Shown one piece after another: positions 5,080 through 50,853 of a stretch of DNA of 50,853 bases. Numbering within the stretch: position 1 is the first letter of the stretch; every line of letters begins with the position of its first letter. Below the pieces are notes generated by a model that had not been told where the DNA came from, did not search any database, and saw only the letters and a program-made list of their open reading frames with translations. This stretch comes from a virus (taxonomy: Duplodnaviria > Caudoviricetes): positions 1-50,853 of IMG/VR virus record IMGVR_UViG_3300037468_000175. One strand, 5' to 3'. The translations under genes and the position numbers were made by a program.

Positions 5080-5142
5080 TAACCACACCTCCGGAACTTA
5101 CTAACAAAACACATCAACAGGAATAGTGAGGAGGTGACATTT

Positions 5143-6003
5143 ATGCCTAATTTGACAACGACCACTTCGGCCGTGTTTATTCCCGAAGTTTGGTCAGTTG
5201 AAACCCTGCGAGCTGCAGAACGCGCTTTGGTTCTCGCGCCCCTGGTTAAGCGTTATGACTCCTTGGTCAAGATGCGTGGTGATACCATCCACGTACCCAG
5301 AGTGAGTAACTTATCGGCCAACGATAAGATACAAGACTCCGAGGTGACCTTGCAGACCGTAACTGAAACCGAGGTTGGTATTGATATTGACCAATGGAAA
5401 GAGGTGTCCTTCGAGATTGAAGACATCGTCAAAGTCCAGTCACAATACGACCTGAGAAGCGAGTACACCGCCAAAGCCGGTTACGCCATCGCCCAAGCGG
5501 TTGATACTGACTTATTCGCCCTCTACGCTTCGTTGACCACCACAGATGTCGGCACTTATGGTGTCGATATTGGTGACGACGAGATTGTAGCGGCACTTCA
5601 GGTATTGGATGAGGCCGACGCCCCGTTGGAAGACCGTTTCTTAGTGATTGCGCCTTCGCAAAAAGCCGCGATTATGAAGCTGGACAAGTTCGTTAAGGCC
5701 GATTACCTCGGTCAATACGATATGCCTACTCCGGTTAAGAAAGGCCCCAACAACCGCTATCTATGGGGAGATATTTATGGTGTCCCAACCTACTACACCA
5801 ACCAAGTTCCGGTAACTGCCGGGACTCCAGACCAGACCCACAATATCTTATTCCATAAGGAAGCGTTCGCTTTAGCGATGCAACTCTCACCGAGGACACA
5901 AGCATCGTACTGGCAAAAAGACTTAGCCTGGTTAGTGACAGCAGATACCATCTACGGAGTCTCCGTACTTCGTGACGATTTTGGTGTCGAAATCAGAAGC
6001 TAA
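5143..6003 (+). CDS. Major capsid protein (HK97 fold, P22/T7-like)
   Basis: FIPEVWS, GDTIHVP, IDQWKEVSFEIEDI, AGYAIAQAVD, FHKEAFALA, D.IYGV motifs; SD GAGGAGGTGA. Confidence 0.9.
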   Translation: MPNLTTTTSAVFIPEVWSVETLRAAERALVLAPLVKRYDSLVKMRGDTIHVPRVSNLSANDKIQDSEVTLQTVTETEVGIDIDQWKEVSFEIEDIVKVQSQYDLRSEYTAKAGYAIAQAVDTDLFALYASLTTTDVGTYGVDIGDDEIVAALQVLDEADAPLEDRFLVIAPSQKAAIMKLDKFVKADYLGQYDMPTPVKKGPNNRYLWGDIYGVPTYYTNQVPVTAGTPDQTHNILFHKEAFALAMQLSPRTQASYWQKDLAWLVTADTIYGVSVLRDDFGVEIRS

Positions 6004-16812: not shown

Positions 16813-18354
16813 ATGGCAGTCAGTACATTAGAAGCACAAGGGGCTATGGCTAACGCTAACCCTAACATTCTTTCGAACACTTATACCGGAGGGGCACAGC
16901 AAAACACTACTATGACCGCACCGCCTCCTAACGTACCGGATGAAACTCCGGAACTACCGCCTGGTTCAGAACAAGCGATGGGATTAGCCCAAGATACGGC
17001 TCAATCGTTATATGACCGAGGTTTTGTAAGTCAACAGGAAGGCCAACGGGAACAATCACTCAACGAATTAGCCGGATACGACCGAATGTTGAATGATGTG
17101 TACCAAGGCAAGTCATTTTTCCCCCAAACCGAGGGGTACGTGGACAATCCGGCAGATTTGACCGGGGGATTATCACGGATTGCCGGACTAACCGGAGGTG
17201 TTGCCAGTCAAACCGCTTCGGCCATTGATACTACCGAACGGTCTTACCAAATGGCGGTCAATTCGGTCTTAGACAGGTTCAACCAATTTGCGGCTATGCA
17301 GTTGGAACGAGAGAAATTAACTCAATCGGGTTCTGGTGGATTTGACATCAATAGTATTCTCTCCATTTTGACTAATAATGAGACTCAACAAGCTATGCCC
17401 GAAGAACCACAAGAAGAAATGTTAGGACCTGCAACCTTCGCTGGTGGTCAGCAGAACGTTCCTACTGCCACTCTAGCGTCTTCACAACCGAGGACGTTGG
17501 GTATCAGTACAGCCGAGACACCAATCGGTTTTCAAGCCAATACAATGGCTCTCCCAACACCTACAGGTCCAAGTCCAGTAATGACTGCACCTGCACCGAC
17601 TCAAGTTGGCTTCCAAGCCCAATCACCCTTAGCTGGTTTACCTACCACCCAACAATTTATGCAACCGGGGGCGGGCAATGTTGAAACTGGGTCAAATAAC
17701 CTCATTAAAGCCCTGCAAATGGCTAAGAATATGGACCAAGTGAATACTATTATCAAATTGAATGAGATTGTCCAGAAATCTAAAGGAACAGGAACGCTGT
17801 CGGAAGGCCAAATGACTTCGGCTAGCGATTTACGCCAAGAGTTCGGGAAGGCAAAGGCGATTGCCGACACAATGCTGGATGCTCACCAAGTAATCTTAAA
17901 TGCCGCACCTACCCACGCTGGAGATTTGGCCTCTATAACGGCCTTTATTAGGATGCTGACTAAGCGGTCAATCGTAACCGAAGCACAATCAGAAGCCGCA
18001 GGAGAAACCGATAGTTTATTGCAAGAAGCTCAACAGCAATATCAAAAATTAGTCGGAGGTGGGCGGTTATTACCGGAACAAAGGATACAATTAAAGGCAG
18101 AAACTAGTCGGATATTTGAGGAACAAATGACTCGCTTCCAAACTGCGGTGAACTATTATGCCAGTATTGCTCCGCAGTACGGAGTACAACCTTACTTAGT
18201 AGTAGGCAGTCAAGACCAATTAAGGCCATATTTTGAAAGGACTCCTCAAATGTCAGTTCAAGAACAAGGCCGTGAACCGATTGAAAACTTTATGGAGCAA
18301 CGCCCTTCACTATGGGAGTCAATCTCCAGAGGTTTGAAAGGAGGAATTGTCTAA
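16813..18354 (+). CDS. Putative ejection protein
   Basis: GDLASITAFIRML...SIVTEAQ resembles the GD..LI..Y.KMLDP.SVVRE.E ejection-protein motif. Confidence 0.55.
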   Translation: MAVSTLEAQGAMANANPNILSNTYTGGAQQNTTMTAPPPNVPDETPELPPGSEQAMGLAQDTAQSLYDRGFVSQQEGQREQSLNELAGYDRMLNDVYQGKSFFPQTEGYVDNPADLTGGLSRIAGLTGGVASQTASAIDTTERSYQMAVNSVLDRFNQFAAMQLEREKLTQSGSGGFDINSILSILTNNETQQAMPEEPQEEMLGPATFAGGQQNVPTATLASSQPRTLGISTAETPIGFQANTMALPTPTGPSPVMTAPAPTQVGFQAQSPLAGLPTTQQFMQPGAGNVETGSNNLIKALQMAKNMDQVNTIIKLNEIVQKSKGTGTLSEGQMTSASDLRQEFGKAKAIADTMLDAHQVILNAAPTHAGDLASITAFIRMLTKRSIVTEAQSEAAGETDSLLQEAQQQYQKLVGGGRLLPEQRIQLKAETSRIFEEQMTRFQTAVNYYASIAPQYGVQPYLVVGSQDQLRPYFERTPQMSVQEQGREPIENFMEQRPSLWESISRGLKGGIV

Positions 18355-20189
18355 TGGCTACATACATCCGTTATCAAGACCTCATTGATGCCGGTTATTC
18401 TCCCCAAGAAATTACCAAATGGGAAACACTTAACACCGACACCAAGATTATTAGGCAACCTGTAAGCCGAGCTACGACTATGATGGGCAATCTGGGTGAA
18501 GTAATGATGCCTGGGAATGTCAAGTTTTGGTCGCAAGCAACAGGTACGGGCGGTGAACAATTACCCTCTACCACTTACCAGCAACAAACCCAACGTCTTA
18601 TCAACCAGCAAGAAACACCTCAAGCCAGGATGGGTACGGCTCTTAAGCGTTTCCCCGGTTATGCCGGAACTTCATTTATGGAGAAACTCCCTGCGGCTGG
18701 AGAATGGGCGGCTATGCTCGCCCCGTCTATCGTGGCTGGTGGACCTGGGGCAACTGCTTCGGTTCAAACAGCCACTAAACCAGGATTGTTAAGGGCCTTA
18801 ACCGCACCAGTCCAAGTGGGTCGAGTAGGAATGGGGGGAAACATAATGCGTGGGGCGTTATCCGGTATGCAAGCCGGAGGGATTTATGGGGGAACTAGGG
18901 AAGCCGAAGGACTAACACAAAGAGCTTTACAGACATTAGGAGGAATGGGAGTTGGTGGAGTAATGGGGGGGTTATTCTCGGCTGGTGCCGAAGGAGTTAA
19001 GGCATTAGGCCGTGGCGTTCAAACCAGAATAGCCGAAGAAGGGGCAAGGAAAGTAGCCCGTCAAGCAGTAGCCCAACCAACTGTAGAAAACTTAGTTCGG
19101 TCTAAAGAGGCACTCACCAAAGCCCAAGTCCAAGGCGGTTTCTACCCCAAATACCGTTCACCCTCATATGCCAAACAACTGATGCAATCAATGTTAACCG
19201 TACCTACCAAGGTCAATAGCCGGATTAAGACGGGAGATACGATTGACGACTTGTTGAGGTACAAGATTACTTTCGACAGTCCGGAACAATTACGCAACCT
19301 GGCTCAACGGGTAACTGGGGCTCACGGTGACGTAACGGTAATGACCCGCAACGCTATATGGCAATCGGCAGGCAATACTCCGATTAACGTCAATGATGTT
19401 ATTCCGGCCGTAGACGACTTTGTTGACAACTCTTTCTATATGAGCGATACCCAAAAGGACATCGTGAAGCGTAAGGTGGCCGAGGAAGTTGGCAAACGCC
19501 TCCAAGCCAAAGGAGTTGGGGCTACCACTGATATATTCAAAATGAATGCCTTAGATGCGTACGACCTGGCTAAACACTTGGAACGCAAGGGATGGAATGA
19601 GATCAACAAATCCACTTACCTGACCCAACGGCTTGATGCCGAGGATTTAGGTCGGGCTTACTTAAGTGCCGCAGACATTCTGACCGACCAATTGAATGAC
19701 GTAGTCAAGCCGGAAGCGATTGCCGCCGTCAAGACTCCAGAGGTAATGGCTCGGATTAACGCCATTTCACCCGTATTAGCCGATGACGTAGCCAAAGCCC
19801 AGACTTGGGCTGACATACGGAGATTAGCCGCCACTTTTGTACGGGCAGACAAAGCCGCCGAACAAACAATGTGGGCGAACTATAGTGCCGCCATCAAGAT
19901 GGGGCAAGCGATTGATAGGCGCAAAGGATTGGGGGCATTGGTGCCGAAAACTGGACCGCTAACTTGGATACCTGGCTCTGAAGCCATCCTCTCCTCTCCG
20001 GCAATCAATACGCGGGTAGCCGTAGCGATGCAGGAAGCCCAACGGAAGATTGCTACTAATCCCCTATTAAGAGGGTTAGCCGAAGGGGCAAATAGGTTAG
20101 TGGAGAACCCGATAGCCAGAAAGTTAGGTCGTTACACCGCTATTAGGACACCAGCTATATTGCAACAATTAGCCAATCCGGAGGAATAA
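18354..20189 (+). CDS. Putative ejection protein
   Basis: Gly/Ala-rich hydrophobic helices followed by a helical body. Confidence 0.55.
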   Translation: MATYIRYQDLIDAGYSPQEITKWETLNTDTKIIRQPVSRATTMMGNLGEVMMPGNVKFWSQATGTGGEQLPSTTYQQQTQRLINQQETPQARMGTALKRFPGYAGTSFMEKLPAAGEWAAMLAPSIVAGGPGATASVQTATKPGLLRALTAPVQVGRVGMGGNIMRGALSGMQAGGIYGGTREAEGLTQRALQTLGGMGVGGVMGGLFSAGAEGVKALGRGVQTRIAEEGARKVARQAVAQPTVENLVRSKEALTKAQVQGGFYPKYRSPSYAKQLMQSMLTVPTKVNSRIKTGDTIDDLLRYKITFDSPEQLRNLAQRVTGAHGDVTVMTRNAIWQSAGNTPINVNDVIPAVDDFVDNSFYMSDTQKDIVKRKVAEEVGKRLQAKGVGATTDIFKMNALDAYDLAKHLERKGWNEINKSTYLTQRLDAEDLGRAYLSAADILTDQLNDVVKPEAIAAVKTPEVMARINAISPVLADDVAKAQTWADIRRLAATFVRADKAAEQTMWANYSAAIKMGQAIDRRKGLGALVPKTGPLTWIPGSEAILSSPAINTRVAVAMQEAQRKIATNPLLRGLAEGANRLVENPIARKLGRYTAIRTPAILQQLANPEE

Positions 20190-20190
20190 T

Positions 20191-23100
20191 ATGGCTTGGT
20201 ATGATGAGGGAGTAACCAGGGTTAAGACAGCCGTAAGAGAAAACCCCTTACAATTCACTCCGTTTGCTTGGCGTGAAGCTGCAGTCCCAATGGCAAAAGG
20301 TTTAGGCACCGGATTAGGCGTACCGCAAGCTGGTGAAGACCTGGGGTATGCAATGCGTGGGGCGTTAAACGTGACCCCTTTCGGTGGATTGAAAACGAGT
20401 GCCATAACCGGGATACCTAAGTCCTACGAACCGACTACGCCACGACAGAGAGCTATACAGGATATCTCACAAGGGATTTATGGGTCGGCTTTAATGTCAC
20501 CGATATTAGGGGCACGAGCCGCAGGTCCATTGGCTAGAACAATGACTGGTTCGCAAATAACTAGGTTAGGGTTAGGTCAGGTGGCTCGGACTATTCCAAG
20601 CGTTGCCACAATGGGTGCGGGATTAGGTGCGGGAATAAGGGCAATAGGAAATGTATTGACAGATCAACCTATATCTTCTGGTTTACCTCAAGCGGTGGGT
20701 CAGGGGGCACAGTTTGCTTTGAAAACAATGCCGACTATGTTAGGTACGCAAGCGTTGGTGGGTAAGGTAGCCGAATCGGTGCCTGCCCTACGCCAGTTAA
20801 CCGAACAAGGGATTAAAGGTTATGCTCCGATTGCCGAACAAACCATTGGTCAGTACGCCAAATCTATTGGTGATGTGGGGATAAGGCGGTTGATACGCGG
20901 TGTCCTATTAGAGACACCCATCGAAGCCATCACCTACGGAGTAGTGAACAAGCGGGGTGAAGAAGGTTTGATGCGGAGTATTGAACGTGAGGCATACGAA
21001 AACCTAATCTACAATATCGGTTTTGCAGGGTTTAATACCGCCTCAAGTGCGATGAGCCCCTTAGTTAGGGGGGCGGTCAAAAATGCAATCGAAACCTTTA
21101 GAGGTGGTGTAGTTGCCGAACCGCAAGCCGGATTTGTCGGAACACCAGAGGCAATGTTTAAGGCATTGACCAAATCACAAGTAGATAGGTTGCCAAAGTT
21201 CGTTCCAGTAGCCGAAGGACCGGGGGCGAAGACACGGGTAATGGTTTCCGATGCCGATTCACGCCTAGCTATACCCACTACCGCACTCAAGAAAGCCCAA
21301 AGCGGGGTTGATATGGTATTACCCCTCAAGAACATTCTCCAGCACGACATTCTTTACAAGGCATACCCCGAAATGGCCGACATTCCGGTAGCCATTATTC
21401 CCCAACGGGGCCAAATGAGGGTACCTGGGGCGGTGGGGTTATTTGACCCCGAACAAGGGAGAATCGAATTATTGGTTGACCCGACTGCCGGCGATATCCG
21501 TAAGAACGTACTCCACGAAATCCAACACGTTATTCAAGATGTCGAGGGCTTCCCTGGAGGCGGTTCACCGGCCAGGTCAATGGATGAACAAACGGCTCAA
21601 ATAATGGATGACTATGCGATGGCAGCTAACCTGCGCCGGATGTACGAGATGGGCGGGAAGAAGTCCTGGGATAGTATTGTTAAGGGGGTAGGCGGGGCGA
21701 CCAAACGGGCAGTCCAGTATGCTATGGACCAACCCCTACAGGAGTTAGATAGGGCCGTCAGGACATTAAAGACCCTCTCGGAAATGGAAGGGTGGCAAGG
21801 TTACCAGGGTACGGTAGGTGAACAGGAAGCCAGGGGTACAGAGTTATTAGCCAGTCTCTCCCAAAGGAAGTTGGCCGGAATTGACCCGTACGACACCGCA
21901 AGACGTTATGCCCAGATGGAAGCCACGGGTACGGTCACGCCGTTACCGAAAGAATTACAAGCCAACGTTTCCAAACCAGATACTTATAGTGTTGAGGGTA
22001 CGCAAAGAGACATAGAAGTAGACCAAAAGCTACTTGCTCAGTATGAAAAGGATATTGCCGACCCAAATACTAATCAGGCAAATCTTGATTACTTAAAGCG
22101 GTCAAGGGATTTGTTGCAAAAAGATTTGCAAAGATTGTGGAAGTTACGGAATCAAAACTGGAATCCCTTACAAGAGGCAACCCTCGTTTATGACGAAAAC
22201 AATGTCCCTCACTACGTTGATGCCAATACCGGAGAGGTGCTTAACCCCCGTGTTGAAAATATACCTACCGATCGTAATGCTCCACTTCCAGTAGTATTAT
22301 CGAAACTTCATTACAACGAAGCGGTTGATAAGTACAACAAAGCATTAGGGGATTATGTTGCGGGTGGAGGGATGCAAGCAAGTACTCACAACAGAACTCC
22401 TACGGCTGAAATTAGGAAGTTGTACGCTAATATTGATTCCGCAAAACAAATGATGGAAGCGGTTGCCTCCGGTGATATTCAAACAATAACTACTCTTAAC
22501 AATAAAATACCTCGTAATATGAGGTTTAGTAAAGCAATGCTTAATCAGGGAGTACAAGCCAACATACCCAAAATGACCAGACAGCAATACATCAACCAAT
22601 TCGGGGAAGACCCAGTTGATATGTTCGGGAGGGATTGGCAGAAGGTGGTTAACGCCAGTCTGCCGGTGAAACAAGGGGCTGAATGGGCTAGGTCGGCAGA
22701 AAAGGCCGTCTATGACCAACCGCAAGTACCTGTGTATGGCGGTCCAGGAGGGTTCGGTCAAGAGATGCCGATGGACGTAGAAGCCAATGTACCCAAAGCA
22801 GGTGAACCTAATTATATTCGTGGTTGGGATAGTACTGGTAAAAATATCACGTTTGTACCAGGACAAGATACGGTATTTGAAATGCCAAAAGAATGGGGTA
22901 ATCAGGTAGTTGTCTCTAAAACATTTACCAAATCACCACAAACAGGCAATATTGATGTGAACATTCGGACAAACGACGGTGAAATATTGATAATGCCTGC
23001 CGAAAGTCTAACCTACAAAGGCAAGTTAGAGTCATTACCCCAAGCCAATGTACCAAAAATCCCCGTTGACCAACAACTCGCTACCTGGATTAAGACTGAA

Positions 23101-23742
23101 TTAGTCAATAATGAGGTGTCTAGCGATGCGGAATTAAGGCAAGCTTTCGCCAACCAGGGAGTATCGGAACGCGGTCTTGATATGCTGATGACCCTTCGGA
23201 ATCAAATACTCGGTGCCGGAGGAATGATTAACTCCCAGGAGTTTGTGAACGATAGTGTTGATGATATTCTGCGGATGTCTAGCGATGTTCAAGCCAACGT
23301 ACCAAAGGCCGTTCGGGTTAAGGAACTCGGTGACTTACAGGCCGAATTAAAGGCGTGGAACGCCAAACTGGCACGCCCCGGATTGAGTGAGGCCGAAACG
23401 AGCGAGGCGTTCAACAAGGTAGGCGACCTGGAGACGGAGATAAGTGTCTTAAAAGGTAGGGGAGTTCAGGCGAATATACCCGGGCCAACCGACCCTTATT
23501 TGGCATATTCCAAGAATACAGGGTTGAATATGGCTAACAACCCGCCACCCACTAAAGAGGATTACCAAGACATAATCAAATCCTTCAAACAAGAAGCTCG
23601 CCATATTCCTAATTCTTGGTCTGGTGTATTGGATTTGGGTAACAAGCAAGAGAACTACCAACAATCAATCAAAGAATTAACCGATGAAATGAATAGTTTG
23701 TTTCCCAAAGGCGGTCCCCTCCCAAAAGTCCGGCCCCGGTAG
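20191..23742 (+). CDS. Large polyvalent ejection protein, short form; LPD23-like zincin domain plus QAN[IV]PK-delimited cassettes
   Basis: ILQHDILYKAYP...LHEIQHVIQDVEGFPGGG...GEQEAR motif. Confidence 0.75.
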   Translation: MAWYDEGVTRVKTAVRENPLQFTPFAWREAAVPMAKGLGTGLGVPQAGEDLGYAMRGALNVTPFGGLKTSAITGIPKSYEPTTPRQRAIQDISQGIYGSALMSPILGARAAGPLARTMTGSQITRLGLGQVARTIPSVATMGAGLGAGIRAIGNVLTDQPISSGLPQAVGQGAQFALKTMPTMLGTQALVGKVAESVPALRQLTEQGIKGYAPIAEQTIGQYAKSIGDVGIRRLIRGVLLETPIEAITYGVVNKRGEEGLMRSIEREAYENLIYNIGFAGFNTASSAMSPLVRGAVKNAIETFRGGVVAEPQAGFVGTPEAMFKALTKSQVDRLPKFVPVAEGPGAKTRVMVSDADSRLAIPTTALKKAQSGVDMVLPLKNILQHDILYKAYPEMADIPVAIIPQRGQMRVPGAVGLFDPEQGRIELLVDPTAGDIRKNVLHEIQHVIQDVEGFPGGGSPARSMDEQTAQIMDDYAMAANLRRMYEMGGKKSWDSIVKGVGGATKRAVQYAMDQPLQELDRAVRTLKTLSEMEGWQGYQGTVGEQEARGTELLASLSQRKLAGIDPYDTARRYAQMEATGTVTPLPKELQANVSKPDTYSVEGTQRDIEVDQKLLAQYEKDIADPNTNQANLDYLKRSRDLLQKDLQRLWKLRNQNWNPLQEATLVYDENNVPHYVDANTGEVLNPRVENIPTDRNAPLPVVLSKLHYNEAVDKYNKALGDYVAGGGMQASTHNRTPTAEIRKLYANIDSAKQMMEAVASGDIQTITTLNNKIPRNMRFSKAMLNQGVQANIPKMTRQQYINQFGEDPVDMFGRDWQKVVNASLPVKQGAEWARSAEKAVYDQPQVPVYGGPGGFGQEMPMDVEANVPKAGEPNYIRGWDSTGKNITFVPGQDTVFEMPKEWGNQVVVSKTFTKSPQTGNIDVNIRTNDGEILIMPAESLTYKGKLESLPQANVPKIPVDQQLATWIKTELVNNEVSSDAELRQAFANQGVSERGLDMLMTLRNQILGAGGMINSQEFVNDSVDDILRMSSDVQANVPKAVRVKELGDLQAELKAWNAKLARPGLSEAETSEAFNKVGDLETEISVLKGRGVQANIPGPTDPYLAYSKNTGLNMANNPPPTKEDYQDIIKSFKQEARHIPNSWSGVLDLGNKQENYQQSIKELTDEMNSLFPKGGPLPKVRPR

Positions 23743-23749
23743 CCGGGGC
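23721..23749 (+). promoter_or_regulatory. Programmed -1 ribosomal frameshift signal
   Basis: C_CCA_AAA in frame, 5-nt spacer, perfect GCCCCGG-TAG-CCGGGGC hairpin; the -1 frame is open to 26174. Confidence 0.85.
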
Positions 23750-26174
23750 AAAACCCCAGGCGAATATTCCCAAACCCATTATTGGCAACCAGGGTAACAA
23801 ATACTATGCGGTACCCAACGACACGGGTAATTACACCGTAGTTGACTCCAAAGGTAACGCCCTCGATAAGTACAGCAATATCCCTTCCGCCAAAGCCCAG
23901 GAAGCCCTGGACAAACTCATTCCCCCGTACCGAGCCGTATTTGATAAAGCCAGGAAAACTTACGCGGTCATTGATAGGCAAGGAGAGGTACTAGACACCG
24001 CCACCACTCGAGCCGGTGCCGAAGGGGTAATAGAGTATTACAAAGAAAGTGGTGTCCAGGCCAATATTCCCAAACCAGACCAATTACCTACCAAAACTCC
24101 TGAAACTAATAAAGAAGCCGCCGAATACATCGGGATTACCGAGAATGAGTTAACGAGTAAATACTCTAAACTTAATGAGGACTTGCAAGATGCAATGGAC
24201 CCCCAAATGAGAGAGGGAGTAACAAGAGATTGGGTAGAAAAACACCAAGATTATCTTGACGACATAGACGAGTTTATGGAGCAACCGGGTGAAGATTATG
24301 GTAGGGGAGGCATTTTAGATATGGAGGAAGCCGAAGAGGCCGGAGAAGTTCCAAAATTACGTGAGTTTACAAGATTAACCAAAGACAAGTTGATGGAATT
24401 GACCAATGATGCCATTTATAACGTCTTTCACAATGACAATTACCCACCCAAACTACTGGAGGTCTGGAGGCGGTGGGAGTTGGCGGATAGTTTAGCCGAA
24501 CCCGTTTTAGGGAAGGCCAAAGCCACTTACGATGAATTACCGGATGAGATACCCCTTTATCGGGGGGACAAGGACTACACCTTGAGTAACCAAACCCAGA
24601 ACTTTACCACCGACCCGGCTATGGCTAAGAAGTTTGCTGGTGAGGATGGGAATGTGTACAAATACCTCATTAAGAAGGATGACCTCCATCCGGAGTTCAA
24701 TAATTGGTACTTAGGAGAAAGTGAAATAGTATTAGAAAAGCCAGCCGAAATATTGAAACAAGTCTCTAAAACACCAGCAAGTAAGTTCTCCGTCAAGTCC
24801 CCTACACCTCCAACTGAGGCAGAAGTATCAGCCAATATCCCCAAACCTATCGGGTCAAAACAAATCCTGTATCGGTCAGGCCAACCAACCAAACAAATAG
24901 GCGAGTTCTATACCAGCAATCCGTATTATGCTAAAACTTACGACTTGGGAAACACTAAAGGATTAACAAAAGGAGTCCTTTCAACTGAAGATTTGAATAT
25001 TGCCGACGTTAGAAGCAAAAATGCTTTATGGAATCAATACCTTCCCGAAGAATCAAGAAACTTCCCTAGCCGCTATACCCCATTAGCCGAAGATGTTCCC
25101 GTACGCCAACGGCAAGTAGATACCAGAATAGCCCAACGTATGGGTGAACAAGGGATTGATGCGGCAATCTACCGGAATGTACCCCTTACAAATTGGCTTC
25201 CGCCAATGTACGGGAGTAAGCCGGATGAACTTACCCTTTTCAGTGAGAAAGCCGGACAACAAATGGCTACCGAACCATTTAGTTTACCCAAACCAAAGTT
25301 TGGTGAGTTTACTCCCAAAGATTGGGGTTCGTGGTCTATGCCGATTGATTTTACTAATACTAGAGGCGATTCATTGAAAATATATCCCGATACAACTATG
25401 TTTGAAACATATACCGGGAAACCGGAGTCGTGGCATTTCGAGGTATTACCTAAAGGGGCGAATAATACCATCACCGAGTACGTACCAGCTACCACTAAAC
25501 TTAATGAGGCAGTAGATATTATTACCCAAAAGCATAACTTAGGTAAGTTCACTATACCAAAGACTAATGAGATTACCGGTTTATTGGAGGCCAATATCCC
25601 TAAACCTCTAGGTGGGTCGCCCATATCAAAACTCACCAACGATGAAATGTTCAAGGAGATAAACTATACCAGACCAACAGGGCCGAAAGGTGTACGCCTA
25701 TCAATACGCGATCAACAACGTCTACCCGAACGTGATGTCAATGAGTTCTTGAGTCTTGTGAAGCGGTATGCCACCATCAATACCAAGTCAGATGCGGAGG
25801 TTGATAGACTTTACAATGAAACCAGAGGGATACTCGATTATGCTTCCAGGCAATTCAGGAACAAAACTACAAGTTTAATGATTGATGAGTTCTTACCAGA
25901 GGAGTTGATAAGTGAACACCGGGGAGCATTGATTAAAACAAATGAGTTACTTAAAGATACAGCCAACGCCTCAACTCGTACCGATAAAATTATTGCCATT
26001 GATAAGATGATGAATGCCCAGCATACGGGCGGAAATATGTTGAGTTGGGGCTACAGATGGGACCCTGACGAGGGAAGAATGTTTGTAAACGACACCTTCG
26101 ATTGGTTGCGTAATCAGGGAAAACATATAGCCACCAATATTCCTAAACCACTCCAATCATTAGTAGGAAAATAA
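23727..26174 (+). CDS. -1 frame extension of the polyvalent protein (includes ORF 24183..26174); two ADP-ribosyltransferase-like domains
   Basis: No stop from 23727 to 26172; five more ANIPK motifs; LYRG..FTTD..A..F...ESEIV and LYRS...FYTSNP.YA..Y. Confidence 0.8.
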   Translation, partial: SPAPVAGAKPQANIPKPIIGNQGNKYYAVPNDTGNYTVVDSKGNALDKYSNIPSAKAQEALDKLIPPYRAVFDKARKTYAVIDRQGEVLDTATTRAGAEGVIEYYKESGVQANIPKPDQLPTKTPETNKEAAEYIGITENELTSKYSKLNEDLQDAMDPQMREGVTRDWVEKHQDYLDDIDEFMEQPGEDYGRGGILDMEEAEEAGEVPKLREFTRLTKDKLMELTNDAIYNVFHNDNYPPKLLEVWRRWELADSLAEPVLGKAKATYDELPDEIPLYRGDKDYTLSNQTQNFTTDPAMAKKFAGEDGNVYKYLIKKDDLHPEFNNWYLGESEIVLEKPAEILKQVSKTPASKFSVKSPTPPTEAEVSANIPKPIGSKQILYRSGQPTKQIGEFYTSNPYYAKTYDLGNTKGLTKGVLSTEDLNIADVRSKNALWNQYLPEESRNFPSRYTPLAEDVPVRQRQVDTRIAQRMGEQGIDAAIYRNVPLTNWLPPMYGSKPDELTLFSEKAGQQMATEPFSLPKPKFGEFTPKDWGSWSMPIDFTNTRGDSLKIYPDTTMFETYTGKPESWHFEVLPKGANNTITEYVPATTKLNEAVDIITQKHNLGKFTIPKTNEITGLLEANIPKPLGGSPISKLTNDEMFKEINYTRPTGPKGVRLSIRDQQRLPERDVNEFLSLVKRYATINTKSDAEVDRLYNETRGILDYASRQFRNKTTSLMIDEFLPEELISEHRGALIKTNELLKDTANASTRTDKIIAIDKMMNAQHTGGNMLSWGYRWDPDEGRMFVNDTFDWLRNQGKHIATNIPKPLQSLVGK

Positions 26175-30318: not shown

Positions 30319-30726
30319 TTAGTCATCAATAGGGAATAAGAGGGAGTGCCATAGGAAAAAGGCGTTATCACCGCCCAAGTTCTGCCACAAGCTTTGGCTG
30401 GTCTCCCTGGCCTTCCGGTAATCCCACCCGTTGGACTGGAGGTGGTCCGGATACTTGACCGAGTTGCGGAGTAGTTTTAGTTCCAGGGCGTCCTCCGGTC
30501 TTATGCCCAGTTCGTCGCACAGCTTTAGAGTTAGATACAAAACGTCCCCTATCTCCCCGACTAGGTGGTACTCGGCGTTTTGGGTGGACTCGAACTCCCT
30601 GGCTGACTTCTCCAGTTCCAGGGCTTCCTCCACTATTTGCTTTATCAGCGTCTCCGGTGAGTCGTTCTCCCGCCACCTTTTCCGGTTGTGGTTTTGGTCG
30701 ATTATCTGCTGGTACTGGTCTTTCAT
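30319..30726 (-). CDS. MazG-like nucleotide pyrophosphohydrolase
   Basis: IVEEALEL...GEIGDVLYL...K...N..KYP; start at MKDQYQQ. Confidence 0.8.
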   Translation of the reverse strand: MKDQYQQIIDQNHNRKRWRENDSPETLIKQIVEEALELEKSAREFESTQNAEYHLVGEIGDVLYLTLKLCDELGIRPEDALELKLLRNSVKYPDHLQSNGWDYRKARETSQSLWQNLGGDNAFFLWHSLLFPIDD

Positions 30727-30904
30727 TATCGTATTGGGGTAAGTATTGGCCTGGCTTGACTCCTGGTGGGGGATAAATAAATCCCCGGTGCAGGCACTTA
30801 GCCACACTCGGAGATTCTATAGCAACAACTTTCCCACGAGTATTGACCATTAAGACTTTGGGTTCAACTGGTACTTTTTGTATCTGTTGTTCCTGTTCCC
30901 ACAT
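30368..30904 (-). CDS. Hypothetical protein; 3' part overlaps the MazG gene in another frame
   Basis: SD GGAGGTG before ATG at 30904. Confidence 0.4.
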   Translation of the reverse strand: MWEQEQQIQKVPVEPKVLMVNTRGKVVAIESPSVAKCLHRGFIYPPPGVKPGQYLPQYDNERPVPADNRPKPQPEKVAGERLTGDADKANSGGSPGTGEVSQGVRVHPKRRVPPSRGDRGRFVSNSKAVRRTGHKTGGRPGTKTTPQLGQVSGPPPVQRVGLPEGQGDQPKLVAELGR

Positions 30905-31295
30905 AACGCACCTCCACTTCCAGGCCATCTTCCTTGGCCGGATAGATTTTATCGGTTTCTAAATGAAAGATTTGTTTATCGTTCTTAATTACCTGGGCGA
31001 ACTCCAGGGTATCAAGCAGAAGTTTATGGGAGGAATCAATATCACGGTTGCGGATAAGATACAGCGTCACCTTAACACTGACTGGAGTTTCAATTAGGGG
31101 TTTTTGTTTCCTAGCACCTCGGATAATAAAGGTTGCCTCTTGTTGCCACGCCTTAGCCGTATTGCGTTTGTAGATATAGGAACGCCCGGTCTTGGTAGAA
31201 AAAGTCCCGTAAGAATGGTTGAGAGTGGGCGGGAGGGGTAATCTAACCCTCAATTCCCCGGGCTTGAGTAAAGACTCGTTGAGTGAGTTCGGCAT
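30864..31295 (-). CDS. rusA: RusA-like Holliday junction resolvase
   Basis: LPLPPTLNH.Y, RDIDS..K.LLD.L....I.NDKQI. Confidence 0.85.
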   Translation of the reverse strand: MPNSLNESLLKPGELRVRLPLPPTLNHSYGTFSTKTGRSYIYKRNTAKAWQQEATFIIRGARKQKPLIETPVSVKVTLYLIRNRDIDSSHKLLLDTLEFAQVIKNDKQIFHLETDKIYPAKEDGLEVEVRYVGTGTTDTKSTS

Positions 31296-49288: not shown

Positions 49289-50853
49289 ATGGCTGAAGAC
49301 CTTGTACGTATTGCCCGATTGTTAGACGACAGACAAAAAGCCGAACGGTTATTCCAATCGGCCTCAGATGCCCGAAGGCGGTACGACTGGGAGTGGCTAA
49401 CCCGTGACCTATTCAGGCGTGGCTACCAGTTTAGCCGGTATGACCCGAACAACCGCACGATTATTCTGTCTACCCGTTCAATGGTCAAAATCCCCATAAA
49501 TATTACTAATGCCCAGATGCGGACCATCAAAAACCAGATTACTTCTATCCGGCCTAAATGGGAGGTCTTGCCTCGGTCGTTAAGCGAGGAGTCCAGGGAC
49601 AATGCTCGGTACAGTGGGCGAACCTTGGACTATTATTACGACCACCTTAACTTACGTAGGTTACTCAAAGAGACGATTATTCAAGGGTTGATGTATTCGG
49701 TGGGTGGCCCTTGGCAGATAGGGTATGACCCAATGGGCGGTGAGAATGGCGAGGGAAGCGTATTTGTGTGGCTGTTAGACCCGTTCGACTTCTATATTGA
49801 CCCGGCGGCTAGTTCCTTAAAAGACGCCCAATTCGTTATTAAGGCAGTCAGAACCTCATTGAACAAGATTAAAGCCAATCCGGAGTATTCCTTCTTTGAA
49901 GACTTGGCTAATATCAGGGGAGAGTTCCGGTTAGCAGCTTCGGAGTACAAGCAATTCCTGTTACAGGCACTCAAATACTACCAACCCAAGACCACCTTAG
50001 AGGAGGAGGAAGGGGTTATTCTCAAAGAGGCGTGGATTCCAGTGTACGTAACGGAGGACAACACCGATGTCATTACCGAGGAATTGAAACTGGCCGACCA
50101 AGACTTTAAGAACCTCAGAATGGGTGAAATGGTAATGAAGGTAATTACCTATATTGACAGCTTAGAAATGCCGTTAAAGTACCGCTACCAACGCCAGGAC
50201 TACTATCCCTTTACCCTGTACCAAGCCGACGTTAACCCGATGGAGATATACGGGGAGTCGTGGATTAAGCACGTCATACCAATGAACCGTGTCTTAAATG
50301 CGTTGGAGAGTTCCATATTCAAATACAATTACAAATACGCTATTGGCCGGATTGTGGTAGATAAGAATAGCGGGGTGCGGATAATCACCAATGAACACGG
50401 CGATATCGTTGAAAAGAATGCCGGTGCAGAGGTCTTTTCTTTACCCCTACAGCCGTTGCCTTCCTCTTACCAAGTCCAGATTGGCAATATGCGCCAATAT
50501 ATGGAAGACGTAGGCGGGGCGCACGAAGTCTCAATGGGGCGTATTCCGGCAGGTGTGAAGTCAGGCATCGGGATTGCCGAACTGAAAGCCGCCGATGCGG
50601 TCAACCAGCAAGACTTGGTAGACGCTTTAGAGGAGTTCCTGGGTGATGTGGGTTACAAGGTGTTAAGGGTAATTGCCGAATACTACGACATTCCCAAGGT
50701 GATTAAGGTCTTGGGTAAGACTGGTGCACCGGAACACTTCACTGTGATTGGCGAAAAAGGGGCTACCAGCCGTAAGAACCGCAAAGAAGTCAGGATAGGA
50801 CCGGATACGTTCAACCTGTCAGTAATTGGTAAGGATAACGAAGTCCAGGTCAC
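49289..50853 (+). CDS. Portal protein, N-terminal part (continues through the junction to the stop at 689; ~708 aa)
   Basis: ATG at 49289 is in frame with ORF 18..689 (50744 = position 18); lies after the terminase; podovirus portal-like sequence (DPFDFYIDP, SMGRIPAGVKSGIGIAEL). Confidence 0.85.
   Translation, partial: MAEDLVRIARLLDDRQKAERLFQSASDARRRYDWEWLTRDLFRRGYQFSRYDPNNRTIILSTRSMVKIPINITNAQMRTIKNQITSIRPKWEVLPRSLSEESRDNARYSGRTLDYYYDHLNLRRLLKETIIQGLMYSVGGPWQIGYDPMGGENGEGSVFVWLLDPFDFYIDPAASSLKDAQFVIKAVRTSLNKIKANPEYSFFEDLANIRGEFRLAASEYKQFLLQALKYYQPKTTLEEEEGVILKEAWIPVYVTEDNTDVITEELKLADQDFKNLRMGEMVMKVITYIDSLEMPLKYRYQRQDYYPFTLYQADVNPMEIYGESWIKHVIPMNRVLNALESSIFKYNYKYAIGRIVVDKNSGVRIITNEHGDIVEKNAGAEVFSLPLQPLPSSYQVQIGNMRQYMEDVGGAHEVSMGRIPAGVKSGIGIAELKAADAVNQQDLVDALEEFLGDVGYKVLRVIAEYYDIPKVIKVLGKTGAPEHFTVIGEKGATSRKNRKEVRIGPDTFNLSVIGKDNEVQV
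50727..50853. repeat. Second copy of the 127-bp terminal repeat
   Basis: Identical to 1-127. Confidence 0.95.

Follow-up and report, generated by a model that had tools for sequence, protein, structure and literature searches.

A likely programmed -1 frameshift in the gene of a giant modular phage protein, with a signal shared by a related phage

Results

The junction at the end of the giant-protein gene

The window considered here is the whole 50,853-bp DNA of the IMG/VR virus record IMGVR_UViG_3300037468_000175 (Duplodnaviria; Caudoviricetes), a complete record of a sediment phage, with direct terminal repeats. Its structural module is podovirus-like, and after the tail genes it carries a run of large unannotated open reading frames (ORFs) on the same strand, which encode 441, 397, 513, 625 and 1183 amino acids (aa) in that order. 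Our subject is the end of the last and largest of this run, the gene of a giant protein, where the 1183-aa frame stops within a putative -1 frameshift signal and a long open -1 frame continues behind it. An earlier note, written from the sequence alone, had proposed that a programmed -1 frameshift extends this protein to about 1,990 aa. The analyses reported below support the proposal: there is no indel at the site, the sequence behind the stop is start-less and coding in type, and the signal is kept in a related phage, with a predicted long form of 1994 aa.

The final 0-frame codons of the gene are CTC CCA AAA GTC CGG CCC CGG TAG, a phasing that places C_CCA_AAA in the register required for tandem tRNA slippage. 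After the spacer, GCCCCGG (23733-23739) can pair with CCGGGGC (23743-23749) around the loop UAG (23740-23742), so that the stop codon of the short form is itself the hairpin loop (Table 1). Heptamer, spacer and hairpin are present as the earlier note had described them and together form a compact signal of 29 nt. When folded alone, the hairpin reaches -15.0 kcal/mol, and 5 of 200 shuffled sequences fold at least equally well. A scan for terminators and promoters found nothing at the hairpin. A 0-frame stop within one to four codons of the heptamer is common in bacterial -1 signals, and a 5-6 nt spacer followed by a G+C-rich hairpin, as found here and in the relative described below, fits such signals too. 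In the accessible text of Sharma et al. (PMC4066793), C_CC.A_AA.A is among 18 heptamers that are under-represented in Escherichia coli genes and shift at more than 0.10% without a stimulator; C_CC.A_AA.G was the best of all, with 54% shifting when combined with the IS3 pseudoknot.

The heptamer is the only in-register X_XXY_YYZ in the -1/0 overlap. The gene encodes 23 xPK tripeptides, and the one at the junction alone has the C_CCA_AAA arrangement; the linkers use ATT, ATC, ATA or GTA, followed by CCC, CCT or CCA and AAA or AAG, in non-slippery combinations. Across 44 ORFs of the window (13,704 codons) there are 33 in-frame X_XXY_YYZ heptamers, two of which are CCCAAAA. By an arithmetic estimate, chance would place about 0.03 heptamers of any kind, and about 0.002 copies of CCCAAAA, in the roughly 14 in-frame positions of the 44-nt overlap. 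The other in-register C_CCA_AAA among the ORFs scanned lies on the minus strand at 30578-30584, in the ORF at 30368-30928, 72 codons before the end of this 186-aa frame.

The -1 frame behind the stop codon

From stop to stop, the -1 frame is open for 826 codons (23697-26174), and the 815 codons counted by the earlier note run from the slip site to its end. That note was also right that this frame has no good start of its own: there is no ATG, GTG or TTG between 23697 and 24182, which leaves 152 codons past the slip site start-less. The earliest candidates are TTG at 24183 and ATG at 24195 and 24207; starts are thus available only from 24183 onwards, which creates the apparent gap of 440 nt. 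The gene caller placed its start at 24207, giving a 655-aa product (P0003) and leaving this gap in a tightly packed genome.

The gap has the character of coding sequence. A log-odds score of codon usage, with 27 other ORFs of the window genome as its training set, changes its preference from the 0 to the -1 frame within 23598-23795. Between 23745 and 24182 the -1 frame scores +0.337 per codon while the other frames score -0.317 and -0.822; the former value exceeds the approximately +0.2 of the undisputed parts of the gene. The gap also carries the gene's own linker motif. In a six-frame translation of the 50.8-kb genome, AN[IV]P occurs nine times, and all nine matches lie in the giant-protein gene, five in the 0 frame (22552-23464) and the others in the -1 frame (23754-25584). 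The -1 linker nearest the slip site begins 27 nt past it, and the two copies of QANIPK noticed earlier, at 23757 and 24057, are indeed inside the gap. Over both frames there are at least 10 linker-delimited modules. The start-less gap, codon usage, linkers and codon choice at the junction therefore agree, as far as sequence can indicate, that the -1 frame is translated from the junction. The predicted long form comprises 1179 + 815 residues (220.5 kDa) and would contain the junction peptide ...GGPLPK-SPAPVAG..., with the hyphen marking the shift.

The frame break is not an artefact peculiar to one assembly. Logan contigs of three sequencing runs, X1 (depth 41), X3 (57) and X4 (11), each span 23200-24400 unbroken with 0 gaps, so that an indel, which the earlier note had suggested excluding by a read pile-up, is absent from these run-level assemblies; a further run, X5, holds parts of the stretch outside the junction. 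The independence of the runs is partial, since X1 and X3 could contain the source sample and all may stem from one campaign. The sole difference in these 1.2 kb is T>C at 23765 in X3 and X4, and the contigs of these two runs are therefore not copies of the record. This substitution is synonymous in the -1 frame (AAT>AAC, Asn) and non-synonymous in the other two, although this is one data point only. Three contigs are on record with the exact 1183-aa product.

The same signal in a related phage

A search with the capsid protein returned 26 related viral loci, and the five longest records were searched with the window's proteins. The window product P0001 matched one of the five and the window product P0002 none; the other four are uninformative because, by their coordinates, they are fragments that end before the giant-protein gene. 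The one informative relative, G001, is a complete record of 50,884 bp with direct terminal repeats, a capsid protein 84% identical to that of the window and the same gene order. Its syntenic ORF encodes 1603 aa (P0004); in the surroundings of the HEXXH module, over about 300 residues, its identity to the window protein is 25-27%.

This ORF ends in ...TCT GGA AAG ATC CCG CTC ATC CCA AAA CGG TAG. It has the same in-register C_CCA_AAA, at 17178-17184 of locus L030 and within the overlap 17070-17190, and the TAG follows one codon later. A 6-nt spacer behind the heptamer leads to a bulged, G+C-rich hairpin of 11 bp whose sequence is unrelated to that of the window (CCCCCACCCCC...GGGG..GUGGGGG); folded alone it reaches -22.1 kcal/mol, and 10 of 200 shuffles are as good. 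Codon usage changes frame at the slip site, and the -1 extension of 244 codons (TVAPTPVGGEVGGEIPGGVAGKIPKPLMVNEQ....) has its own linker, AGKIPKP, ahead of any ATG. Of the 16 xPK tripeptides of this gene, again the junction one alone is slippery. The chance of finding the same heptamer in the approximately 40 in-frame positions of the overlap is about 0.006, also by an arithmetic estimate. MAFFT failed to align the heptamers of the two junction regions, because the flanks of the junction are unrelated. Inspection by eye revealed no Shine-Dalgarno-like upstream stimulator common to the two phages.

Heptamer, nearby TAG and hairpin are thus kept in the one relative of one that has junction DNA, with diverged flanks. 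The signal was kept while its surroundings changed and while 244 to 815 downstream codons stayed open.

We searched for further junctions by several routes. P0002 and P0001 as single proteins found no relative among viral contigs, and P0005 and P0006, two proteins introduced below, had no match there. An N-terminal alignment searched against metagenome and viral contigs found a single contig of 16 kb that breaks off at residue 338, short of the junction; an alignment of the upstream neighbour found four loci, and G001 alone reaches the junction. Alignments A1 (N-terminal) and A4 had no match among genome contigs. In GenBank phages, tblastn of P0002 had no match, and tblastn of P0001 returned six records in which 10-20% of the protein is covered, around the zincin region. 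A homologous-protein search with P0002 returned the window's own 655-aa call and nothing longer, and one with residues 1-480 of P0001 returned the protein itself, P0006 and P0154.

Split and single-frame members of the protein family

A HMMER search with the 1183-aa protein gave 1261 matches at E <= 0.001, the best 150 of which were listed; 32 listed proteins were inspected and 154 proteins were scanned for patterns. Beyond the window products P0001-P0003, the linker architecture was found, among the matches listed, in the G001 protein P0004 and in P0005, P0006 and P0018. Each lineage has its own linker, [QE]AN[IV]PK(P) in the window, [AS]GK[IV]P[QKAS]P in G001, AKNIP in P0005 and Q[AT]NVP in P0018, and these share the core [NK]-[IV]-P. 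The linker-bearing stretches extend over 22552-26150 in the window and over 12379-17918 of L030 in G001. Module content varies among the window, G001, P0005, P0006 and P0018.

Two of these proteins, known at the protein level, stop directly after [LI]PK. P0005 (999 aa, 41% identical at the N-terminus) ends in ...AKNIPKAPILPKR (...ILPKR), and P0018 (1193 aa, G001-like) ends in ...EYGIPKVQPR, to be compared with ...GGPLPKVRPR in the window, where the last four residues, VRPR, are the hairpin read in the 0 frame. P0006 is of a different kind: it has 1672 aa in a single frame, is 40-43% identical at the N-terminus and uses the linker QANIP[KMP]P. Its C-terminal domain (...ASKVIAFDDFMHAMHLRKGTVLSADLD...RIPKPVGAK) aligns with the extension of G001 (...GKDKVIAFDKLINMIHSNDGSVLAANLD...LPKPKGVR) and with the last -1 module of the window (...RTDKIIAIDKMMNAQHTGGNMLS...NIPKPLQSLVGK). 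Since P0006 is encoded in one frame, the family includes the fused form as a normal protein, and in the split forms the break falls exactly at the frameshift signal.

Modules of the giant protein

The 1183-aa frame encodes an N-terminal region, then a zincin-type HEIQH motif at residue 442 (nt 21514-21528), and then the linker-separated modules. The HEIQH region matches Pfam DUF6782, a 'putative metallopeptidase', at E 0.043 and 13.5 bits, below the cut-off of 27, and phrog_13543, of unknown function, at E 6.8e-5. The region 340-580 is common to most of the 1261 matches and to the six phage records. The N-terminal region (window 20191-21200, residues ~100-330) is common to very many proteins of 1100-1770 aa that differ in architecture. 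Pfam LPD38, the 'large polyvalent protein associated domain 38', is present in P0009, which is more distantly related. The N-terminal region probably serves phage cargo proteins as a shared domain for packaging or anchoring, and the whole 1183/1994-aa protein is probably a giant modular virion cargo protein of the polyvalent type, internal or ejected. The label 'ejection protein' used in the earlier note derives from gene size and position, and both packaging and ejection should be read as presumed. From its sequence, the AN[IV]PKP linker resembles a site of cleavage or processing, at which the embedded HEIQH module or a head protease may act.

The conserved C-terminal module was modelled from a three-row alignment and is predicted, at modest confidence, to be all-helical, with a predicted local distance difference test (pLDDT) score of 58.7. 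A Foldseek search of this model against the PDB gave 0 matches at E <= 0.001, and a protein atlas placed the module in unnamed viral clusters only (0.90). A further match to this domain occurs in another phage (tblastn E 5e-9). P0153, a 1237-aa protein of an unrelated phage (6013-9726 of L035, an IMG/VR record of 56,697 bp), carries twice in tandem the 'KDKxIAIDNF..T.HTSG' helical domain with which the predicted frameshift products end, together with two HExxH-like motifs; its N-terminus is weakly prohead-protease-like (Peptidase_S78, E 0.0085, below the cut-off). Its presence in P0153 suggests that several phage lineages use the C-terminal domain as a module of the head interior.

One part of the earlier proposal was not confirmed. 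The extension had been read as bearing ADP-ribosyltransferase (ART) effector cassettes whose dose the frameshift would set. No ART was found by Pfam (no hit up to E 10 for the isolated module, nor any for the extension as a whole), PHROGs, a PDB sequence search (chance-level rows only), a single-sequence fold (extension residues 117-366; pLDDT 36.3, unusable) or the atlas, whose assignment of the ART-like module to DUF4765 (0.94; 157 of 256 features shared) is no more than a lead. Read by eye, the YRG...FTT...ESE pattern of the extension is at most suggestive. The comparison with G001 also points away from effector dose, since there the frameshift-dependent part is without effector-like cassettes and consists only of a linker and the C-terminal helical domain.

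Genomic setting

The giant-protein gene is on the same strand as, and downstream of, the genes of the portal, capsid, Laminin_G fibre, SU10-type adaptor and tail (Table 1). The portal-like ORF (49289-50851) is still open where the record stops at its 3' end, and the 5' end in turn lies in an open frame (3-689); the portal gene probably continues across the record ends, by the terminal repeat or a permuted assembly. The two large ORFs directly upstream of the giant-protein gene (16813-18354 and 18312-20189) overlap by 43 nt, with the second in the -1 frame, and their G001 counterparts (L030 9198-10646 and 10624-12303) overlap by 23 nt in a different relative frame. The ORF heptamer list has no in-register slippery heptamer near the window overlap, which therefore seems to be an ordinary overlap with an ATG start.

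Table 1. Features of the giant-protein gene and of the structural module in the window.
Feature	Position	Strand	Remarks
0-frame ORF, 1183 aa, 128.9 kDa	20191..23742	+	ends ...FPKGGPLPKVRPR*
Five 0-frame AN[IV]P linkers	22558..23481	+	A at nt 22558, 22783, 23044, 23293, 23470
Slippery heptamer C_CCA_AAA	23721..23727	+	within 0/-1 overlap 23697-23742
5-nt spacer GUCCG	23728..23732	+	
Perfect 7-bp G-C hairpin, 3-nt loop	23733..23749	+	predicted frameshift stimulator
0-frame TAG stop (hairpin loop)	23740..23742	+	4 codons past the heptamer
-1 frame extension, 815 codons + stop	23727..26174	+	
440-nt apparent gap	23743..24182	+	start-less, coding-type codon usage in the -1 frame
-1 frame ANIPKP linkers	A at 23760, 24060, 24831, 25590	+	plus ATNIPKP at 26133, at the very end
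Conserved C-terminal module	25593..26171	+	...DKIIAIDKMMNAQH..GG..L...; ends IPKP + 7 residues
P22/SU10-type portal	49289-end of window		
Major head protein	5134-6003		
Other structural genes			1096-aa fibre (Laminin_G_3 and DUF2341 domains), SU10-type adaptor, tail proteins

Discussion

Weighing the explanations

On the sequence evidence above, we consider it likely that the junction is a conserved programmed -1 ribosomal frameshift inside a giant cargo-protein gene. A number of observations weigh against this reading or limit it. The hairpins beat their shuffles only moderately, with z of -2.28 (window) and -1.82 (G001) when folded alone and of -0.6 to -1.1 in longer context (-0.61 for the window hairpin in 86 nt), as expected from G+C-rich linker sequence. 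Inspection by eye revealed no pseudoknot downstream of the heptamer, a search of 23500-24000 against Rfam gave 0 matches at E <= 1, and CCCAAAA is not enriched genome-wide (15 observed, 14.35 expected). The start-less continuation of the -1 frame holds for the window and not for G001, where possible starts lie soon past the stop (GTG 17214, GTG 17238 and ATG 17265). There is a single relative with junction DNA and it is fairly close by its capsid, so the signal may have been inherited once rather than found twice; as the two phages are related, inheritance is probable. The ends of P0005 and P0018 are the weaker part of the comparison: true C-termini likewise end in IPKP and a few residues, so that these ends, seen without their DNA, are readable as terminal linkers, and the loose pattern of [LIV]PK plus at most six terminal residues also matched four unrelated proteins of the 154. 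P0006 shows, by its sequence, that the family can do without a frameshift. The similarity between the C-terminal regions of the window and G001 is weak when taken alone (BLASTP E 0.003 over 26 residues), the search of the five longest capsid-related records found no match for the region, and the link between the two depends on P0006 as a bridge (20% and 29% identity to the window row) and on the tblastn match in another phage. The sequencing runs listed as carrying the stretch include no RNA run.

We weighed four other explanations of the junction. It could separate two genes, of which the upstream ends at the TAG at 23740 and the downstream starts at TTG 24183, ATG 24195 or ATG 24207, with 440 nt left untranslated. 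The record indeed has a called 655-aa gene, ATG 24195 is preceded by GAGGA 8 nt upstream, and the GTG and ATG codons of G001 would offer starts there as well. It is in the supposed intergenic stretch, however, that coding-type codon usage of the -1 frame is at its strongest for the region. The stretch stays open over 152 codons and contains QANIPKP, a linker private to the gene, twice, which makes sense only if these copies are joined to the upstream polypeptide. In G001 the -1 linker lies upstream of the ATG, and in P0006 the two parts are one protein. We therefore regard two separate genes as unlikely, even though a separate downstream product from ATG 24195 could exist in addition to a frameshifted one. 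The alternative that an unprogrammed one-base mutation split a continuous gene, so that the 1183-aa form suffices and the downstream frame is decaying, agrees with the continuous form in P0006 and with the short, indel-prone C and A runs at the junction. It is very unlikely, given that 815 codons in the window and 244 in G001 are still open with coding-type usage, that both phages break frame at the same in-register heptamer and hairpin despite unrelated flanks, and that the one strain difference within 1.2 kb leaves the -1 frame protein unchanged.

The two remaining explanations concern the data and the mode of recoding. An indel from sequencing or assembly in a continuous gene of 1994 codons would not be surprising in principle, since the record is a metagenome assembly and runs of CCCC, CCC, AAAA and CCCC lie at the site. 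The assemblies of three runs nevertheless agree, two of them with a substitution of their own, even if their independence is partial, and G001, assembled independently, breaks frame at this heptamer too; an error of this kind is extremely improbable. Recoding of another type, by transcriptional slippage on the A or C runs or by a shift elsewhere in the 44-nt overlap, could draw on further short homopolymers in 23697-23742 (such as TTT CCC AAA at 23701). The runs have just 3-4 bases, however, and known sites of transcriptional slippage are far longer; CCCAAAA, moreover, is the sole in-register X_XXY_YYZ of the overlap and the element common to G001. We judge this explanation to be highly improbable.

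Proposed mechanism and role

A shift-prone heptamer, a spacer of 5-6 nt and a G+C-rich hairpin are the grounds on which we propose tandem slippage. The majority of ribosomes would read CTC CCA AAA in the 0 frame, pass into the hairpin and terminate at the TAG in its loop, which would yield the 1183-aa form of 129 kDa. A fraction would be held by the hairpin with tRNA-Pro on CCA and tRNA-Lys on AAA; both tRNAs would then slip one base back, with tRNA-Pro re-pairing on CCC and tRNA-Lys on AAA, and the shifted ribosomes would translate 815 further codons to give the 1994-aa form of 220 kDa. This long form would share its N-terminus with the short one and add further modules and the conserved helical domain at the C-terminus. 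As both forms would come from one start, the frameshift would fix the ratio of copies without and with the C-terminal part. That ribosomes actually shift here, and how efficiently, we infer, and a long form that makes up 1% or 50% would be equally compatible with the data.

As to what the shift might gate, comparison of G001, the window and P0006 identifies the C-terminal domain as the common denominator: in G001 the frameshift-dependent part is a linker and this domain, in the window the domain follows four more modules of the extension, and in P0006 it is present without recoding. By analogy, its role could be attachment to the portal or core, incorporation, or a function after ejection. We tentatively suggest, as a possibility that is doubtful at present, that the signal is a stoichiometry device, a cassette placed within the repeated linker of a shuffling, protease-processed polyprotein, with the C-terminal domain being copy-number-limited and the linkers forming an undescribed class of processing site. 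Every copy would then have the N-terminal packaging part and the zincin module, and the frameshifted minority alone would have the C-terminal helical domain and the modules behind the cassette. Processing at the AN[IV]PKP linkers and the role of the C-terminal domain are both presumed here. If this suggestion is true, G/GT-like logic would operate on injected cargo in an uncultured podovirus lineage, and the C-terminal domain would be an assembly or ejection element.

More generally, if the frameshift is real, phages would also set the dose of the cargo they carry in by recoding. It would account for 'orphan' start-less frames behind such genes in metagenomic phages, and it would correct the annotation of the window, where gene calling had divided a 1994-aa product into 1183 aa, a 440-nt gap and 655 aa.

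Comparison with known systems

Programmed frameshifting in tailed phages is annotated almost solely for tail assembly chaperones and a few capsid genes. In the accessible text of the PRFect study, the 'joined' genes of the training set are given as tail chaperones (PMC10885494). We found no report of frameshifting in internal virion, ejection or polyvalent proteins in the open-access papers searched. The mechanism is a textbook one; the novelty lies in the class of gene, in a signal that sits within a repeated linker, and in how long the extension is.

Polyvalent proteins (Iyer, Burroughs, Anand, de Souza and Aravind 2017, PMC5512222) resemble the giant protein in being very large and multi-modular and in having a HEXXH zincin-type module, and the accessible text of that study proposes that they are processed by embedded metallopeptidases and delivered with the DNA. 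Unlike in our case, neither 'frameshift' nor 'linker' occurs in the main text as available, so that a linker motif and frameshift control are undescribed there. The signal itself is like those of IS3/IS911 orfA-orfB and dnaX in having a heptamer with an A_AAN A-site codon (tRNA-Lys), a downstream structure and a 0-frame stop close by. It differs from them in that neither a shared Shine-Dalgarno-like stimulator nor a pseudoknot was found here, and its biological context is different.

As in lambda G/GT, the -1 shift would occur at an X_XXY_YYZ near the 3' end of a gene of the structural module and would set a fixed ratio between a short and a C-terminally extended product that have the same N-terminus, with the extension forming a separate domain (accessible text of PMC5009743). 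The lambda products, however, are small and absent from virions, whereas those predicted here are large modular proteins of 129 and 220 kDa that probably form part of the virion cargo. The genome is also podovirus-like, with a podovirus-type portal and adaptor and no tape-measure gene seen, there is no sequence similarity to G/GT, and the slip site lies within a repeated inter-module linker. We considered membership of the G/GT tail assembly chaperones and rejected it on the grounds of size (1183/1994 aa) and the absence of similarity; the gene would work like G/GT without being a member. In T7-like 10A/10B, a -1 shift near the normal stop of the capsid gene adds a short extension. Our case is similar in that a podovirus structural gene would give a minor, C-terminally extended form, and differs in that the extension has 244-815 codons and belongs to a cargo protein; the capsid gene of the window was checked for a T7-like extension and has no overlapping -1 frame. 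The best analogy may therefore be lambda G/GT or T7 10A/10B, in which a majority short form is accompanied by a minority long form that carries a distinct, copy-number-limited domain.

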